DNA of 8,225 bases from a virus (Duplodnaviria; Heunggongvirae; Uroviricota; Caudoviricetes): the IMG/VR virus record IMGVR_UViG_2693429557_000018. One strand, given 5' to 3'. Positions 1 to 8,225 of the stretch are shown in pieces (the stretch's first letter is position 1; every line of letters begins with the position of its first letter). Position numbers and translations under genes: made by a program. The notes under the pieces were generated by a model. It made no database searches and had not been told where the DNA came from. It saw only the letters and a list, made by a program, of their open reading frames with translations.

Positions 1-65
1 GGTAGTGTCCGCTATTGCCAGTACACCTCATACTGAGGGTACTACGTGATAAGAAAGTAGTTACC

Positions 66-1025
66 ATGAAGATTATCGATAACCTCACCTTTGAACGGGC
101 TAATGAGAAGTTATCGCGGAATGGTATAGCTAATCGTATCCGTAAGGACATTACCATTGCTCAGGATGATTACATTACTAACCTCTTCCCGAAGATGCTG
201 AAATGCGGTCACTGTGGGGGCAATATTGCAATTCACTATAATCATGTACGAACTAAGTATGTTATTTGTCGTAACAGGGAAGAAAAGAAGATCTGCGATG
301 CTAAATCTATCCAGTACATGAGAATTGAAAAGAACATTCTACAGCTTGTCAAAAATGTAGACTTCAATAAATTGATGATGGAAGGTAAGTCGGATTCAGA
401 TTCATTGCTTGCATCATTGCGAGAAGAGTTAAGTACTTTACAGAAAGAGGCAGAAACCTATCAGGTTAAAATTAATGAACGTAAGGCAGCAGGTAAGAAA
501 GCCTCGTTACCATTAATGACGGGTTTAACTGAGGTACAGGATAGAATTGAAGAAATAGAATCTGAGATATTAAATTCAAAGAACATCAAAGAAATCCCTG
601 TATTTGATTTCGATATTAATAAAGTACTTGATCCATTGAATGTCGAGTTACGTGCAAAGTTACGGAAAGAAGTAAGATTAGTACTGAAATCTGTTAAGTA
701 CTGGGTTTTTGAAAAGCGTATATTTGTACAGTTGGAATACTTCAATGATGTCCTATCCCATACGCTTGTGATTGATAACAAGCGGGGCGGGGGTGAAGTA
801 CTACATGAGATCGTAATCTCTGAAACAAGCGGCGAGCGTGTCTACACTGTCAATGAAGAGGGCAAAACCGTTTTCATTGCCTCCGTTACATCTGGTACTG
901 ATATGTGGTCGCTTGCCATTAGCCGTACCAAAATACTTGATGATGTTGGATTGTATCTTAATCTTCTCAAGCGTGAAAAATTTGAGATCATTGTTAATGA
1001 AGATATGATTGATTGGATGGATTAA
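66..1025 (+). CDS. Large serine recombinase, C-terminal zinc-ribbon plus coiled-coil portion; N-terminal catalytic domain not encoded in frame in this window (split, frameshifted or truncated gene)
   Basis: Translation has the recombinase-type zinc-ribbon motif (FPKMLKCGHCGG ... YVICRN ... KKICD, i.e. CxxC...C...C) followed by a long coiled-coil-like stretch (LREELSTLQKEAETYQVKINERK...), the C-terminal module of large serine recombinases. First ATG is at 66 (a TTG at 15 has no RBS). There is an in-frame TAG at 3-5 and stops in the other two forward frames at 34-36 and 47-49, so no upstream reading frame continues into this ORF. Confidence 0.6.
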   Translation: MKIIDNLTFERANEKLSRNGIANRIRKDITIAQDDYITNLFPKMLKCGHCGGNIAIHYNHVRTKYVICRNREEKKICDAKSIQYMRIEKNILQLVKNVDFNKLMMEGKSDSDSLLASLREELSTLQKEAETYQVKINERKAAGKKASLPLMTGLTEVQDRIEEIESEILNSKNIKEIPVFDFDINKVLDPLNVELRAKLRKEVRLVLKSVKYWVFEKRIFVQLEYFNDVLSHTLVIDNKRGGGEVLHEIVISETSGERVYTVNEEGKTVFIASVTSGTDMWSLAISRTKILDDVGLYLNLLKREKFEIIVNEDMIDWMD

Positions 1026-1798: not shown

Positions 1799-1972
1799 AT
1801 GGAATGGTTTACTAAATTACTTTACGAGATAGTAGGCTTTGTACTTTACATCTTTCTGATAATCCCAATATATATAGTGCTCATGTTTTTATCTATGATT
1901 TTAGTACTATTGCTTTCCCCATTAAAAATCAAATCGATAAATAAATACGTAGTAAGAAAAATGAAACGCTAA
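1799..1972 (+). CDS. Small hydrophobic (membrane) protein, about 57 aa
   Basis: The ORF track gives 1733..1972, but 1733 is a TTG with no RBS; the first ATG is at 1799 (MEWFTKLLYEIVGFVLYIFLIIPIYIVLMFLSMILVLLLSPLK...), preceded by a G-rich stretch. The product is almost entirely one or two predicted transmembrane helices with a basic C-terminus. Confidence 0.35.
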   Translation: MEWFTKLLYEIVGFVLYIFLIIPIYIVLMFLSMILVLLLSPLKIKSINKYVVRKMKR

Positions 1973-2082
1973 AAGTTTTGGTGCTATACTAATAGTATCA
2001 GAACGATAATGCGTTTTGCCTTCCGCTCCAGCTTTGAACATAAATAATATAGCGACAATAAATTTCCTTTTTAATTAAGATT

Positions 2083-2110
2083 GCCTCTCTTGCGAGAGAG
2101 GTATCTTTTT
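2083..2110 (+). terminator. Candidate rho-independent terminator
   Basis: Hairpin with 7-bp stem CCTCTCT / AGAGAGG (2084-2090 / 2095-2101) and 4-nt loop TGCG, followed immediately by TATCTTTTT; lies between the 1799..1972 ORF and the next gene. Confidence 0.5.
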
Positions 2111-2160
2111 AATTTGGATTTATAAATACAGTATACAAATACACCTATAAGGATATAGAA

Positions 2161-2346
2161 ATGAAAAAAGTAACTTTAAAGGAACGCAAACATCATGTAG
2201 TAACCGCACGTCTTAATGACGATCAAGTACTTGTACTTAACCAGCTAATTAGTAGTGGGAAGGTACAGAAAGATTCATTATCAGCCTGTGTTCAGTACTT
2301 AATTAATCAGTACATGATTTTACAGGGCGGTGGTAATGAAGAATGA
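2161..2346 (+). CDS. Small DNA-binding protein, ribbon-helix-helix-like (CopG/Arc/MobC-type fold predicted)
   Basis: 61-aa ORF with good RBS (AAGGA, 7-nt spacing). The pattern of a basic N-terminus, a short beta-strand-like segment (HHVVTARL) and two helices (DDQVLVLNQLI; SLSACVQYLINQY) is typical of RHH regulators and antitoxins. Assignment is from sequence pattern only. Confidence 0.5.
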   Translation: MKKVTLKERKHHVVTARLNDDQVLVLNQLISSGKVQKDSLSACVQYLINQYMILQGGGNEE

Positions 2347-2638
2347 CTTTGATTTAGTACAATATTTTGATGATTACACAATAGTAGGGGATATGGATTA
2401 TCACTATTTCTATTGTGTGAAGTATCAGGAAGGTTCATTAGAAGCACATTATGAACGAATTGGTGATCCAGAAGTATTAGGTACTATTACATGGAATGGA
2501 AATTACCTAATCGACGGATTACCAATGGTAATGTTTGTACTGGCTGCTGAAGATGAACATAAGGAATGTTTAAACCGTTTGCTAATCGTATGTGAGAAGG
2601 CGAGGGATGAATATAGGCTAAATGCTACTGGCCTCTAA
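2336..2638 (+). CDS. Hypothetical strongly acidic protein (about 100 aa), translationally coupled to the upstream RHH-like gene
   Basis: ATG at 2336 overlaps the end of the upstream ORF (stop 2344-2346) in a different frame; a GTG at 2330 is an alternative start. By hand count about 19 Asp/Glu versus 8 Lys/Arg. No recognisable motif. Confidence 0.5.
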   Translation: MKNDFDLVQYFDDYTIVGDMDYHYFYCVKYQEGSLEAHYERIGDPEVLGTITWNGNYLIDGLPMVMFVLAAEDEHKECLNRLLIVCEKARDEYRLNATGL

Positions 2639-2692: not shown

Positions 2693-3247
2693 ATGAACCC
2701 TAAAATCACTTGGAGATTAATTCCAAATTCAAAACATTACTACGTATCTGAAAATGGCGATGTTTACAATGATAAAACAAAACAGTATATAGCTACGAAA
2801 AACCCATCTAATGGATACAAAAAAGTTTCTATTAATGGCAAATCACTATATGTACATGTTTTGGTTTGTACTTTATTCAATGGTGCTAAACCCATTGGAG
2901 GAAGATACACTGTAGATCATATCGACCGCGATAAAATGAATAACAAAGCAAAAAATTTACGTTGGGTAACTCAGAAGGTTAATAATTCCAATAGAAAGCA
3001 TAAAGGTACTCGTACTCAAAAGCTTACTCTAAAGCAATGGTTAATGATTGTTGGAGAGTACCTTAAAGGACAATTATCTCAATATGCAATCACTAAATGG
3101 TTTTTAAATCAAACTGGTATTAATATTTGCCCTCAGAATATAGGTAAGTTATTCAAAGGTACTACCTATTCAAAATGGTACACAACATATCTTACGAATA
3201 AGCAAAGACAAAGAATACAAAGCCTAACCATTCAACGTAAACCATAA
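2693..3247 (+). CDS. HNH homing endonuclease (NUMOD4-like N-terminus plus HNH_3-type nuclease motif), free-standing
   Basis: N-terminal WRLIPNSKHYYVSENGDVYN (NUMOD4-like), central GYKKVSINGK...YVHVLVC...TVDHIDRDKMNNKAKNLRWVTQKVN (HNH of phage homing endonucleases), basic C-terminal tail; RBS AAGGA 8 nt upstream of ATG 2693. Confidence 0.8.
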   Translation: MNPKITWRLIPNSKHYYVSENGDVYNDKTKQYIATKNPSNGYKKVSINGKSLYVHVLVCTLFNGAKPIGGRYTVDHIDRDKMNNKAKNLRWVTQKVNNSNRKHKGTRTQKLTLKQWLMIVGEYLKGQLSQYAITKWFLNQTGINICPQNIGKLFKGTTYSKWYTTYLTNKQRQRIQSLTIQRKP

Positions 3248-3250
3248 AAA

Positions 3251-3274
3251 ATGCCAGTATTCCAGTACTGGCAT
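3251..3274 (+). terminator. Perfect 9-bp inverted repeat hairpin directly after the homing endonuclease gene; weak terminator candidate
   Basis: ATGCCAGTA (3251-3259), loop TTCCAG, TACTGGCAT (3266-3274), 4 nt after the stop codon; followed by CTATTC, which is not a clean U-tract. Confidence 0.3.
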
Positions 3275-3368
3275 CTATTCAAAACTCAATGGCAATGAAG
3301 CCAAACTTATTAAATGGCCTGTAATCACTACGGGTCACGATTAATTAATTTATACAGGATTATTTATC

Positions 3369-3830
3369 ATGGCAAAAACCTATTCAACTTTTGATAACAG
3401 AAACATAAAAGCACTAATTAGCCAGTACAAGCTATATAAAGATATCCCATGCGAAGACATCAAGAACATCATGAAGGACTCAGTAGCTAAACTTAAAGTG
3501 AGAGATAAGATTAGTGTATATGATGTGTTTGCAGTATTGAGTAATGAAGATGAATTACGGAATGATTTACTATTCAATACTATCAATGCTATTAAAGTAC
3601 AACAGAATAAGAAACAAGTAAAAGAACGTATGATCAGGTACTATGGGGCAGCGATCACGGATGCAGCAAAACGAATAGAGCAGTATATGTTGGCACACCC
3701 AAACGCACTGCCAGCACCAGTATATGGACAAAGAACACTAACATATAAAGAGTTTGGTAAACTATTGGAACTACAAAAACAAGGTGACTTTATTGATGAC
3801 ATGATCGAGTACTTAAAGGGCTTGCGTTAA
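3369..3830 (+). CDS. Hypothetical protein (153 aa)
   Basis: Intact ORF with ATG at 3369 and AGGA-containing upstream region; no recognisable motif. Confidence 0.55.
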   Translation: MAKTYSTFDNRNIKALISQYKLYKDIPCEDIKNIMKDSVAKLKVRDKISVYDVFAVLSNEDELRNDLLFNTINAIKVQQNKKQVKERMIRYYGAAITDAAKRIEQYMLAHPNALPAPVYGQRTLTYKEFGKLLELQKQGDFIDDMIEYLKGLR

Positions 3831-4293: not shown

Positions 4294-5037
4294 ATGAACA
4301 GAAAACAATTCATCCAGTCGCATGGTGCTACTTGTAGTAACTGGACTTGGAGTTGGTCATTTGTGAACCACGACAAGAAAATGGTTATCTTTGGTGCATG
4401 GGATGTACAAAAAGAGCAAGAAAGATCAGTCATTCTGAGGGAGCGGTGGAAAACCAAAGTTGTGGAGGGAAAGGAAAGAAAAAATCTTGGATATATTCAA
4501 GCTATTGAACACATTCAATTGATAGCTGAAGGTTATGAGCTTTACACGTTTGATATGGAGCAGGGACGAAACGATGAGAATAGAGATGTAGCTGTTATCA
4601 AACGGTTCACTCCAAAACTTGAAAAACGTTACCTTCGGAAAGAAGGAACAGTTTGGTATGCAGACTTTTTACCTAATCCATTTCCAGATGAAATTACCTC
4701 ACCTGAAAACTACGCTGAGGGTGCAAAAAAGCAAGTTACAGTAAACTCCTACGAGCGTGATCCAAAAGCACGACAGGCTTGTATTGACCATCATGGTACT
4801 TCCTGCGGGTGTTGTGAGTTTAACTTTGAGAAAGTCTATGGTGAACACGCCAAGGGCTTTATACACGTTCATCATATCAAACCGCTACACACAGTAGGCG
4901 AGGATTACGAGGTAAATCCAATTACTGATATGGTTCCACTTTGTCCAAACTGTCACGCAATGGTACATCGCGGTAACGAAGTATTAAGTGTCGAAAGTTT
5001 AAAAGCACTGTTGTTTAAAGACAGCAATAAAATTTGA
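4294..5037 (+). CDS. HNH-family nuclease with an uncharacterised ~160-aa N-terminal domain (candidate restriction/defence nuclease)
   Basis: C-terminal HNH signature CIDHHGTSCGCCEF ... HVHHIKPL ... NPITDMVPLCPNCHAMVH (Cys-rich zinc site, His-His, Asn, terminal His); strong RBS AGAGAGGG 5 nt upstream of ATG 4294. The N-terminal region (QSHGATCSNWTWSWSFVNHDKKMVIFGAWD...) is not recognisable to me. Confidence 0.8.
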   Translation: MNRKQFIQSHGATCSNWTWSWSFVNHDKKMVIFGAWDVQKEQERSVILRERWKTKVVEGKERKNLGYIQAIEHIQLIAEGYELYTFDMEQGRNDENRDVAVIKRFTPKLEKRYLRKEGTVWYADFLPNPFPDEITSPENYAEGAKKQVTVNSYERDPKARQACIDHHGTSCGCCEFNFEKVYGEHAKGFIHVHHIKPLHTVGEDYEVNPITDMVPLCPNCHAMVHRGNEVLSVESLKALLFKDSNKI

Positions 5038-7154: not shown

Positions 7155-7706
7155 ATGAACATTGATAATTGGGCAATACCGATAACAAGTTTGGGTGGTC
7201 AGTTGCTGGGGGTTGAGTTGGTCAGCCATGTAGAACGCGAGGGAATCAGGCAGATCGGCCTATGGGAAGAAGAAGTACTTCATGGGCAACTAATGCTTAT
7301 TGAAAGCAAGGCGGCATGGTTCAGGGATAACGGTTTGTATTGTGTGATTACTACTGGCCGTGGTGAACCATACGAGTACTTACCATTCCTTCGGCAGATG
7401 ACAAGGGATATGAAAGTACATAACCAGCAGTGGCTTGATGATCTCGGTGTACATGGTGGTTCTGCTATTCCTCTGGTTACAGGTGATTTCGAGGTTGCCC
7501 GATTAAATAGAAGGTACACAGAAGAGAACATTGACCGTCTGATCTTTCCAGTACTCATAAAAAGCATTCGCCAGTACTGCGAGAAGGTGATCGTACCCGT
7601 CAGAGATAAAACGTATTACCCAATTCTCAGAGAGGCCGGTGTATGGGCGGTACAGGGAGAGTTCAGGCCAATGCGTTTTGAGCAATGTGAAAAATTAATA
7701 GGATAA
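7155..7706 (+). CDS. Degenerate EAL-like domain protein (183 aa), probably catalytically inactive
   Basis: Motifs resembling the EAL fold in the right order: GVELVSH in place of the EAL motif, LDDLGVHGGS resembling DDFGTGYSS, GVWAVQGEFRPMRF resembling the QG-x-x-F-x-P C-terminal motif. The domain is shorter than a canonical EAL domain and key residues look substituted. Pattern match by eye only. Confidence 0.5.
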   Translation: MNIDNWAIPITSLGGQLLGVELVSHVEREGIRQIGLWEEEVLHGQLMLIESKAAWFRDNGLYCVITTGRGEPYEYLPFLRQMTRDMKVHNQQWLDDLGVHGGSAIPLVTGDFEVARLNRRYTEENIDRLIFPVLIKSIRQYCEKVIVPVRDKTYYPILREAGVWAVQGEFRPMRFEQCEKLIG

Positions 7707-8081: not shown

Positions 8082-8225
8082 ATGGGAAAGGTAATGGTGA
8101 TTTTGTTAGTACTGGCTGGGGTACTCTTCAACATTGCAGGTGAGGATGCACCCCAGCCACAGTACACGGACAATGAGTGGATTTGCCCCTATATTTCCAG
8201 ACATCTGTTATCACTTAACCCATTA
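8082..8225 (+). CDS. 3'-truncated ORF with a hydrophobic N-terminus (signal peptide or membrane anchor)
   Basis: ATG at 8082 (second in-frame ATG at 8094) starts 7 nt after the lipoprotein stop; translation MGKVMVILLVLAGVLFNIAGEDAPQPQYTDNEWICPYISRHLLSLNPL runs open to the window end. Confidence 0.4.
   Translation, partial: MGKVMVILLVLAGVLFNIAGEDAPQPQYTDNEWICPYISRHLLSLNPL

Follow-up and report, generated by a model that had tools for sequence, protein, structure and literature searches.

The question raised by IMG/VR virus record IMGVR_UViG_2693429557_000018 (Caudoviricetes), whose 8,225 nucleotides (nt) are called here the window, is what two small overlapping open reading frames (ORFs) on its plus strand do together: ORF1, which encodes a protein of the ribbon-helix-helix (RHH) type, and ORF2, which encodes a small and strongly acidic protein. 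An earlier examination of the letters alone (from now on, the sequence-only reading) had proposed an autoregulated anti-defence or regulatory pair rather than a classic toxin-antitoxin system. The answer given here is that the pair is an ordinary phage RHH regulator followed by an orphan accessory cargo gene, which is a familiar pattern. As for the way in which it works, the reading that we favour, with a confidence somewhat short of even, is that ORF1 exerts feedback control on an early operon gated by a terminator, while ORF2 is a non-essential, lineage-specific accessory protein and neither a toxin nor a core replication or excision factor. Should this reading prove correct, the ORF1-ORF2 pair itself offers little that is new to biology. 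The more reusable result is then the conserved unit formed by promoter, terminator and RHH gene, together with the insertion hotspot behind it, in uncharacterised serine-integrase prophages.

The ribbon-helix-helix protein ORF1

ORF1 (2161..2346, + strand; ATG at 2161, TGA at 2344-2346) is preceded by the Shine-Dalgarno (SD) sequence AAGGA at 2149-2153 and encodes a protein of 61 amino acids (aa) with a net charge of +2 and an isoelectric point (pI) of 8.89. Its predicted layout comprises a basic N-terminal arm, a beta-strand at approximately residues 11-19, two helices at residues 20-31 and 37-56, and a short tail, QGGGNEE. In the AlphaFold2 model, an extended segment at residues 11-19 is followed by two helices, with a predicted local distance difference test (pLDDT) score of 72-82 in the helices and 64 overall; that is to say, the model contains, within about 45 residues, the beta-strand and the two helices by which an RHH fold is recognised.

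Direct family searches with ORF1 in Pfam, PHROGs, NCBIfam, PADLOC and the PDB sequences returned no match. A relative on a Pantoea plasmid, found by tblastn at 41% identity, seeded a profile search that led to approximately 15 relatives of 48-51 aa and 41-51% identity, one of which carries in nr the name "ribbon-helix-helix domain-containing protein". The alignment of this family shows a strand of the form h-x-V-x-V-K-L and a turn of the form G-K-x-K. RHH_1 (PF01402) was matched by 8 of 14 family members (best E value 2.6e-4, sub-threshold), and PHROG 4738, "transcriptional repressor", was likewise matched by 8 of the 14. Against the PDB, the family profile gave a weak match to the RHH domain of NikR (E value 0.06). 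Compared by hhalign with the RHH-type regulator Aca14, whose sequence was taken from supplementary Table S2 of its description (bioRxiv 10.64898/2026.07.27.740549), the same profile gave P = 0.002 with 34 columns in register, at a probability of only 13%. Purifying selection on ORF1 is evident (ratio of nonsynonymous to synonymous polymorphism, pN/pS, of 0.23; p = 1.4e-4 versus neutrality). We take ORF1 to be a CopG/Arc-type RHH protein of minimal size (48-61 aa) and the conserved first gene of its operon, and the view of the sequence-only reading that it is RHH-like is upheld by the model and by the relatives, the window protein itself being below the thresholds.

The CopG, Arc, Mnt and omega repressors (PF01402) share with ORF1 a size of 45-60 aa, the basic N-terminal arm, the beta-strand and the two helices, as well as AT-rich repeats in the control region and the place of first gene in an operon that runs into replication genes. 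Such a first-gene regulator standing before replication genes is known from copG-repB on pMV158 and from copB-repA on R1. ORF1 differs from these repressors in that it sits in a serine-integrase prophage and has a conserved terminator between its promoter and its gene. One UniRef entry for ORF1 bears the label "Protein CopB", which was taken as an automated name only and set aside because no CopB/RepB-type family appeared among the Pfam matches.

The control region upstream of ORF1

In all 25 loci compared, the RHH gene is preceded by a common layout: a sigma70-like promoter, a leader, a GC-rich hairpin followed by a T-run, an A-rich stretch, an SD sequence and the start codon. It recurs before each RHH gene of L007-L043. 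The promoter-leader-terminator part of this layout has its counterpart in the window at 1961-2112. The promoter scan placed there a sigma70-like promoter (1961..1990, + strand) with a -35 box ATGAAA, an 18-nt spacer and an extended -10 box TGcTATACT; in other lineages, its equivalent is TTGGGAC-N17-TATAAT. The -10 box is invariant across an 11-locus alignment, and a -10-like hexamer lies at -100 to -200 from the RHH start in 25 of 25 loci. The leader (1997..2081, + strand; its start is estimated at about 7 nt past the -10 box) varies in length between loci.

An intrinsic terminator, found by the terminator scan at 2082..2112 (+ strand), ends 49 nt upstream of the ORF1 ATG and consists of the hairpin TGCCTCTCT-TGCG-AGAGAGGTA followed by a T-run. 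A hairpin with a T-run occurs at -80 to -44 from the RHH ATG in every one of the 25 loci. Across 19 lineages, 6 of the 8 pairs of the stem show compensatory changes and 88% of the cells are paired, and the resulting covariation score was reached by none of 500 shuffles. A search of Rfam over the whole window returned no match. The terminator could act as an attenuator or as an antitermination target, or it could end a short RNA of approximately 55-115 nt.

The sequence-only reading had placed a promoter of ORF1's own at 2110-2160. This claim found no support, because the promoter scan detected no sigma70-like site between the terminator and the ORF1 ATG: the proposed region comes directly after the conserved terminator (2082-2112), and the conserved promoter is the one at 1961-1990.

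Two AT-rich motifs of the control region are candidate operators for the RHH protein. One is the palindrome ATACT-AAT-AGTAT (ATACTAATAGTAT; 1986..1998, no strand assigned), a post hoc motif that lies over the -10 box; the window has just one other ATAC-N1-5-GTAT site, and the arms of the palindrome are retained in Kluyvera despite a changed spacer. The other consists of three tandem ATACA repeats (at 2126, 2133 and 2139; 2126..2143, + strand) between the terminator and the SD sequence, which might serve as operator or roadblock. An ATACA-like cluster of this kind appeared in 6 of 2000 Markov simulations, a motif chosen post hoc, and the stretch is conserved across the window lineage.

Two further boxes flank the terminator and recur across lineages: a CU-rich box, TTTCCTT (2063-2069), in the leader 5' of the hairpin, and a GGAGA/GGAT box (2116-2119) just 3' of the T-run; in other loci, the equivalents are ATCTCC(TCC) and GGAGA. 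An outer helix formed by the two boxes and enclosing the terminator was considered and rejected, with 58% of cells paired and almost no covariation. The same outcome befell a small peptide on the minus strand that would start at the GGAGG-like reverse complement of the CU-rich box, as there is no conserved ORF there.

In its arrangement, the region resembles the early operons headed by lambda Cro, P2 Cox and 186 Apl, in which a small DNA-binding protein also comes first after an early promoter and is followed by accessory genes and then by replication genes. The promoter-proximal terminator recalls lambda tR1 or termination control of the P4 type. Differences from these systems are the fold, which is helix-turn-helix there and RHH here, and the setting, since no divergent immunity repressor gene adjoins ORF1 and there is no sign of a role in the choice between lysis and lysogeny.

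Coupling of ORF1 and ORF2

The coordinates given by the sequence-only reading are confirmed by the letters: the ATG of ORF2 at 2336 lies upstream of the ORF1 stop codon at 2344-2346, and the two frames overlap at 2336-2346, by 11 nt. Inside the 3' end of ORF1, an SD-like G-rich stretch for ORF2, AGGGCGGTGG (2324..2333, + strand), is conserved in 7 sequences and pairs with the 16S tail at -7.9 kcal/mol versus a window background of -2.1 +/- 2.6. Together, the overlap and the SD-like site support the tight coupling that had been proposed. The length of the overlap itself is not strictly kept: it is 8 nt in Enterobacter (locus L042), and in Kosakonia (L041) the ORF1 stop codon comes 10 nt before the ORF2 ATG. 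Across the family, the distance from the RHH stop codon to the start of the next gene is as a rule -17 to +12 nt, and occasionally up to approximately 130 nt.

The acidic orphan protein ORF2

ORF2 (2336..2638, + strand; ATG at 2336, TAA at 2636-2638) encodes 100 aa with a composition of D10 E9 K4 R4, that is, 19 acidic and 8 basic residues, giving a net charge of -11 and a pI of 4.39, in line with the approximately 100 aa and net charge of around -11 counted by hand in the sequence-only reading. Among the 11 larger ORFs of the window, it ranks first in acidity. The one relative for which the charge was computed (L023) has a net charge of -10. Short beta-strands followed by a C-terminal helix at residues 73-97 are predicted at low confidence.

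A word-indexed search of a 5.8-billion-sequence index found homologs of ORF2 only at >=89% identity, in prophages of Shigella, Kosakonia and Enterobacter. When 1.8 billion representatives were scanned exhaustively with HMMER, the only additions were one fragment and two spurious repeat proteins, and tblastn against phages and plasmids gave noise only (E value >= 3). A match to a T4-like "thioredoxin" was dismissed, as it is located inside a 319-aa protein.

Is ORF2 then a gene at all? At the base composition of the window, 100 open codons would arise by chance with a probability of 5e-4. The frame is unbroken by indels or stop codons in 7 distinct sequences and in approximately 20 cluster members, which come from three genera; its variable nucleotides are distributed by codon position as 14/4/16, so that second positions are spared (p = 0.026). 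Of its 96 codons compared, 9 vary synonymously only and 18 with a change of amino acid, for a pN/pS of 0.47; the genes on either side are clearly more constrained, at 0.23 (ORF1) and 0.17 (HNH_3). In Kluyvera sp. CRP (L007, 10160-10290), two internal deletions have left a frameshifted remnant of ORF2, and ORF1 (88% identical), the terminator and the HNH_3 endonuclease gene that follows ORF2 in the window are all kept intact. From the selection data, the absence of indels and stops and the loss in Kluyvera, it follows that ORF2 is a real but weakly constrained and dispensable gene, not a chance ORF.

Purifying selection on ORF2 is not statistically established, and ORF2 could therefore be in decay, or could lack a function and simply persist as a passenger of a degraded prophage. 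Such decay would account for the non-significant synonymous excess, and it agrees with the pseudogene in Kluyvera, with the many carrier prophages that have broken recombinase genes or insertion sequences (IS) in them, and with the absence of homologs elsewhere. We nevertheless regard it as very unlikely, given the intact frame in sequences from three genera, the spared second positions, the conservation of its SD sequence and start context, and the fact that ORF2 fills the whole space between its neighbouring genes.

The gene slot behind the RHH gene

The slot immediately behind the RHH gene is hypervariable, and ORF2 is its lineage-specific occupant, lost in Kluyvera. Over the 25 loci, the RHH gene is followed by members of at least 8 unrelated families or by nothing. 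These occupants include: (i) ORF2, in the window lineage only; (ii) two different families of HNH endonucleases, with 7 loci each; (iii) a mildly acidic family of 82-102 aa, in 4 loci; (iv) 72-aa proteins; (v) a basic 101-aa protein; and (vi) in some cases, directly, the primase-helicase. An HNH gene thus occupies the slot in 14 of 25 loci, and since the two HNH families are unrelated and sit in the same slot of different phages, the position looks like a homing-endonuclease hotspot. Further downstream, relatives carry genes for superfamily 2 (SF2) helicases or primase-helicases of 460-1025 aa, or for basic proteins of approximately 155-170 aa. In one locus (L016, 3800-6164), two RHH-headed cassettes stand in tandem; a -10 box, a terminator, an RHH gene and a 72-aa acidic partner are present in each, the two RHH genes are 47% identical, and the first cassette ends in a truncated helicase.

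The exchange of partners bears first on a toxin-antitoxin interpretation, in which ORF1 would be an RHH antitoxin and ORF2 an unusual acidic toxin or else, in a trio of the omega-epsilon-zeta kind, ORF1 would be the regulator and ORF2 an acidic antitoxin to the HNH nuclease as toxin. With the type II pairs ParD-ParE, CcdA-CcdB and RelB-RelE, the locus does share two small overlapping genes with the RHH gene in first place. The omega-epsilon-zeta system, for its part, has a stand-alone RHH regulator and, in the middle, a small acidic protein; here, the gene that comes immediately after the acidic ORF2 encodes a very basic nuclease (pI 10.2, net charge +26). The Kluyvera case, in which the second gene is lost and the first kept, would also be tolerated in toxin-antitoxin logic. 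Four differences nonetheless disfavour a classic system. The RHH proteins of the family (48-51 aa) end 0-3 residues past helix 2 and have no C-terminal extension with which a toxin could be bound and neutralised, and the 7-aa tail of the window protein is lost in Kosakonia (L041); the pairing of RHH gene and partner is not conserved; the acidic ORF2 falls outside the toxin families of Pfam, NCBIfam and PADLOC, with no match to any of them; and, in a departure from both the type II and the omega-epsilon-zeta arrangement, the nuclease gene stays intact in Kluyvera where ORF2 is gone. As, in addition, an HNH gene comes directly after the RHH gene in most other loci, ORF2 is not an obligatory immunity protein. 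The toxin-antitoxin interpretation is consequently held to be most improbable, and here our analysis and the sequence-only reading coincide. A caution follows for annotation in general: the conservation of the pairing should be checked before an "RHH plus small partner" is called a toxin-antitoxin system or a "small and acidic" protein an anti-defence factor.

The genes further downstream bring in a second possibility, according to which ORF2 would be an accessory of the replication module, acting as partner, loader or regulator of the phage helicase or initiator encoded downstream, similar in logic to P4 Cnr. It draws on the loci (L009, L015, L016a/b, L017, L019 and L032) in which the small, mildly acidic slot protein is always followed by an SF2 helicase or primase-helicase, and on the closest intact relative (L023), where the order is RHH gene, ORF2, HNH gene and then a 507-aa helicase-like protein. 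Against it stand the facts that the small slot proteins belong to at least 4 unrelated families, none of them similar to ORF2 (hhalign profile comparison with the other small acidic slot proteins, probability 0.1%); that the same type of helicase occurs with no small partner in L033 and L035-L037; and that ORF2 is kept in prophages with no helicase nearby (the window, L001-L006 and L041-L043). On balance, a replication accessory appears unlikely.

Finally, the charge of ORF2 and its place behind a conserved small regulator raise the possibility of an anti-defence operon, as the sequence-only reading had suggested: ORF1 would be an Aca-like repressor of the Aca14 type, and ORF2 an early acidic inhibitor or DNA mimic directed against restriction or another defence. 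The precedent is Aca14, an RHH-type anti-CRISPR-associated regulator whose operator, an AT-rich inverted repeat, lies across the -10 box (bioRxiv 10.64898/2026.07.27.740549). Both systems feature a small RHH protein over an operon of small, variable and often acidic phage genes, a palindrome overlaps the -10 box here also, and ORF1 aligns weakly with Aca14. The small size of ORF2, its net charge of -11, its hypervariable slot, its dispensability and its fast evolution would all suit such a role. In being small, acidic and encoded early, ORF2 moreover resembles the DNA mimics Ocr, ArdA and UGI-like proteins.

The differences are, however, considerable. The aca gene lies downstream of its cargo (bioRxiv 10.64898/2026.07.27.740549), so that the regulator comes last in acr-aca operons, whereas ORF1 comes first; no known acr or other anti-defence gene was recognised in the ORF1 operon, and homology to Aca14 is not established at the hhalign probability given above. 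In relatives, the operon runs on into replication genes and is not a stand-alone cassette. No sequence match to the DNA mimics was found for ORF2; its 19% of acidic residues and net charge of -11 are moderate, similar pI values are common among the neighbouring small ORFs, and its model is too poor for a judgement of fold or of surface charge. ORF2 has no match to any family, PDB sequence or structure, and charge and position alone point to anti-defence. This explanation is accordingly rated as possible but doubtful. A bolder version of it seems improbable, namely that ORF2 founds a new anti-defence or host-takeover family in a hypervariable cargo slot under an Aca14-like RHH regulator, with promoter, leader, terminator, RHH gene and cargo forming a reusable module for terminator-gated early expression in a group of Enterobacterales serine-integrase phages not described before. 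The hotspot, with its homing endonucleases and small acidic orphans, is a defined place in which to seek new accessory or anti-defence genes.

Proposed mechanism and points against it

The favoured reading, in which ORF1 is a feedback regulator and ORF2 an accessory protein, may be put together as follows. Transcription from the promoter at 1961-1990 would mostly halt at the terminator at 2082-2112, and read-through, basal or induced, would yield the ORF1-ORF2 mRNA; expression of the operon most likely depends on this read-through. A dimer of ORF1 would then bind AT-rich repeats in its own control region, for which ATACTAATAGTAT and the three ATACA repeats at 2126-2143 are the candidate sites, and would exert negative feedback on the operon in the manner of CopG, Arc, omega or Aca14. 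Owing to the 11-nt overlap and to its own SD sequence, ORF2 would be made in a fixed ratio to ORF1. The ORF2 protein most probably acts through binding another protein; the leading guess as to its target, a weakly supported one, is a DNA-binding or defence protein of the host or of a competitor.

Several observations weigh against this reading. On the side of regulation, the terminator may be merely leaky, or may define a separate small RNA, rather than being regulated, and both candidate operators (1986-1998 and 2126-2143) were picked post hoc. With regard to ORF1, the window protein has no match to RHH_1 at E <= 10 and falls below every curated Pfam RHH threshold; of the structure prediction and Foldseek search that the sequence-only reading had proposed, the former gave an RHH-like model and the latter found no match for it in the PDB. 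The ORF2 model is unreliable (pLDDT 47), and the fold searches made with it are therefore uninformative. ORF2 also has no match in Pfam, PHROGs, NCBIfam, PADLOC or the PDB sequences, and no partner or target is indicated; its synonymous excess over the neutral expectation is not significant (p = 0.08); and many small ORFs in the corresponding regions of related phages have pI values of 4.2-4.8. Lastly, in 7 related loci (8 cassettes, as L016 has two) the small, mildly acidic slot protein is always followed by a helicase, and this constancy hints at a replication-linked role.

The prophage and its recombinase

Exact-sequence look-ups found identical ORF1 and ORF2 proteins in chromosomes of Shigella sonnei (for instance, at approximately 1.44 Mb of HE616528.1), and Kosakonia cowanii and Enterobacter cloacae carry near-identical copies. 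The locus forms the left, integrase-proximal end of a prophage inserted beside yeaG/prkA, where a 644-aa large serine recombinase is followed by a small ORF, then by ORF1, ORF2, an HNH_3/NUMOD4 endonuclease and several genes of unknown function, with terS and a GpA-type terminase approximately 8 kb downstream of the pair. Members of the prophage family are found in Shigella, Enterobacter, Kosakonia, Kluyvera, Citrobacter, Raoultella and Pantoea; among the isolated phages of INPHARED, no carrier of the recombinase or of the ORF1 family was detected.

The window holds the C-terminal 336 of the 644 aa of the large serine recombinase, the prophage integrase (15..1025, + strand; Pfam Zn_ribbon_recom, 6e-10; PHROG 95, integrase), and the full-length gene is present in L001 (6756-8690). 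Insertion-sequence ends close the window on both sides (1-36 and 8153-8225): positions 1-36 belong to an element that cuts the recombinase gene short and is multicopy in E. coli, where one genome can hold as many as 43 copies, and 8178-8225 is identical to IS2. Given the recombinase gene cut by the first element and the IS2 end that closes the window, this copy of the prophage is degraded. The host element is thus a degraded Shigella sonnei prophage of an uncharacterised group of Enterobacterales phages of approximately 30-36 kb with a large serine recombinase.

Wherever 2 kb or more of upstream sequence is available, one Pantoea plasmid excepted, the RHH gene has a large serine recombinase gene 0.2-1.7 kb upstream of it on the same strand. 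The known recombination directionality factors of serine integrases are a diverse set of small proteins that cannot be recognised from their sequences, and either ORF1 or ORF2 might, in view of such a close and constant neighbour, be the excision cofactor of the adjacent recombinase. This idea is hardly tenable because the ORF1-ORF2 unit travels with very different recombinases. Between lineages, the recombinases upstream of RHH genes are only 23-40% identical and use different attachment sites; the unit itself, at >=89% identity, accompanies one recombinase on the yeaG side (L001 and L041) and a different one on the rimO side (L042 and L043); the Kluyvera ORF1, at 88% identity, stands beside a third type, 27% identical to that of Shigella; and loci that share the same 582-aa recombinase differ in the gene after the RHH gene.

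Neighbouring genes

Between the recombinase gene and the promoter lies a small hydrophobic ORF (+ strand), which spans 1799..1972 (57 aa) if read from the ATG at 1799, or begins at the TTG at 1733 (79 aa). Its pN/pS is 0.30, and ORFs of 52-77 aa hold the same position in related loci. It could encode a membrane peptide.

The next gene of the operon after ORF2 encodes the homing-type HNH_3/NUMOD4 endonuclease (2693..3247, + strand; Pfam HNH_3, 9e-13; PHROG 59, 2e-28; PADLOC HEase, 1e-18), which is strongly constrained, with a pN/pS of 0.17. Directly after its stop codon, a terminator-like hairpin of 11 pairs is found on the minus strand (3249-3276). In many loci, the HNH gene is followed by an unannotated family of basic proteins of approximately 155-170 aa (L002 11036-11545, L010 6820-7293 and L021 4638-5123, among others); the 153-aa ORF of the window at 3369-3830 (+ strand) resembles this family by eye, not by BLAST.

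Two genes further along the window deserve mention. A 247-aa HNH protein (4294-5037, + strand) matches models of type IV methyl-directed restriction enzymes (PADLOC, 4.7e-7) and, weakly, a model of phosphorothioate-DNA restriction endonucleases (NCBIfam, 1.3e-3); it is kept in several related phages and is a candidate prophage-encoded defence nuclease. A weak similarity links a 183-aa protein (7155-7706, + strand) to the C-terminal portion of PRK11596, an EAL cyclic-di-GMP phosphodiesterase (E value 2.7e-5), and the gene of the 183-aa protein is broken by an IS21-type element in some S. sonnei strains (L003, L005 and L006).

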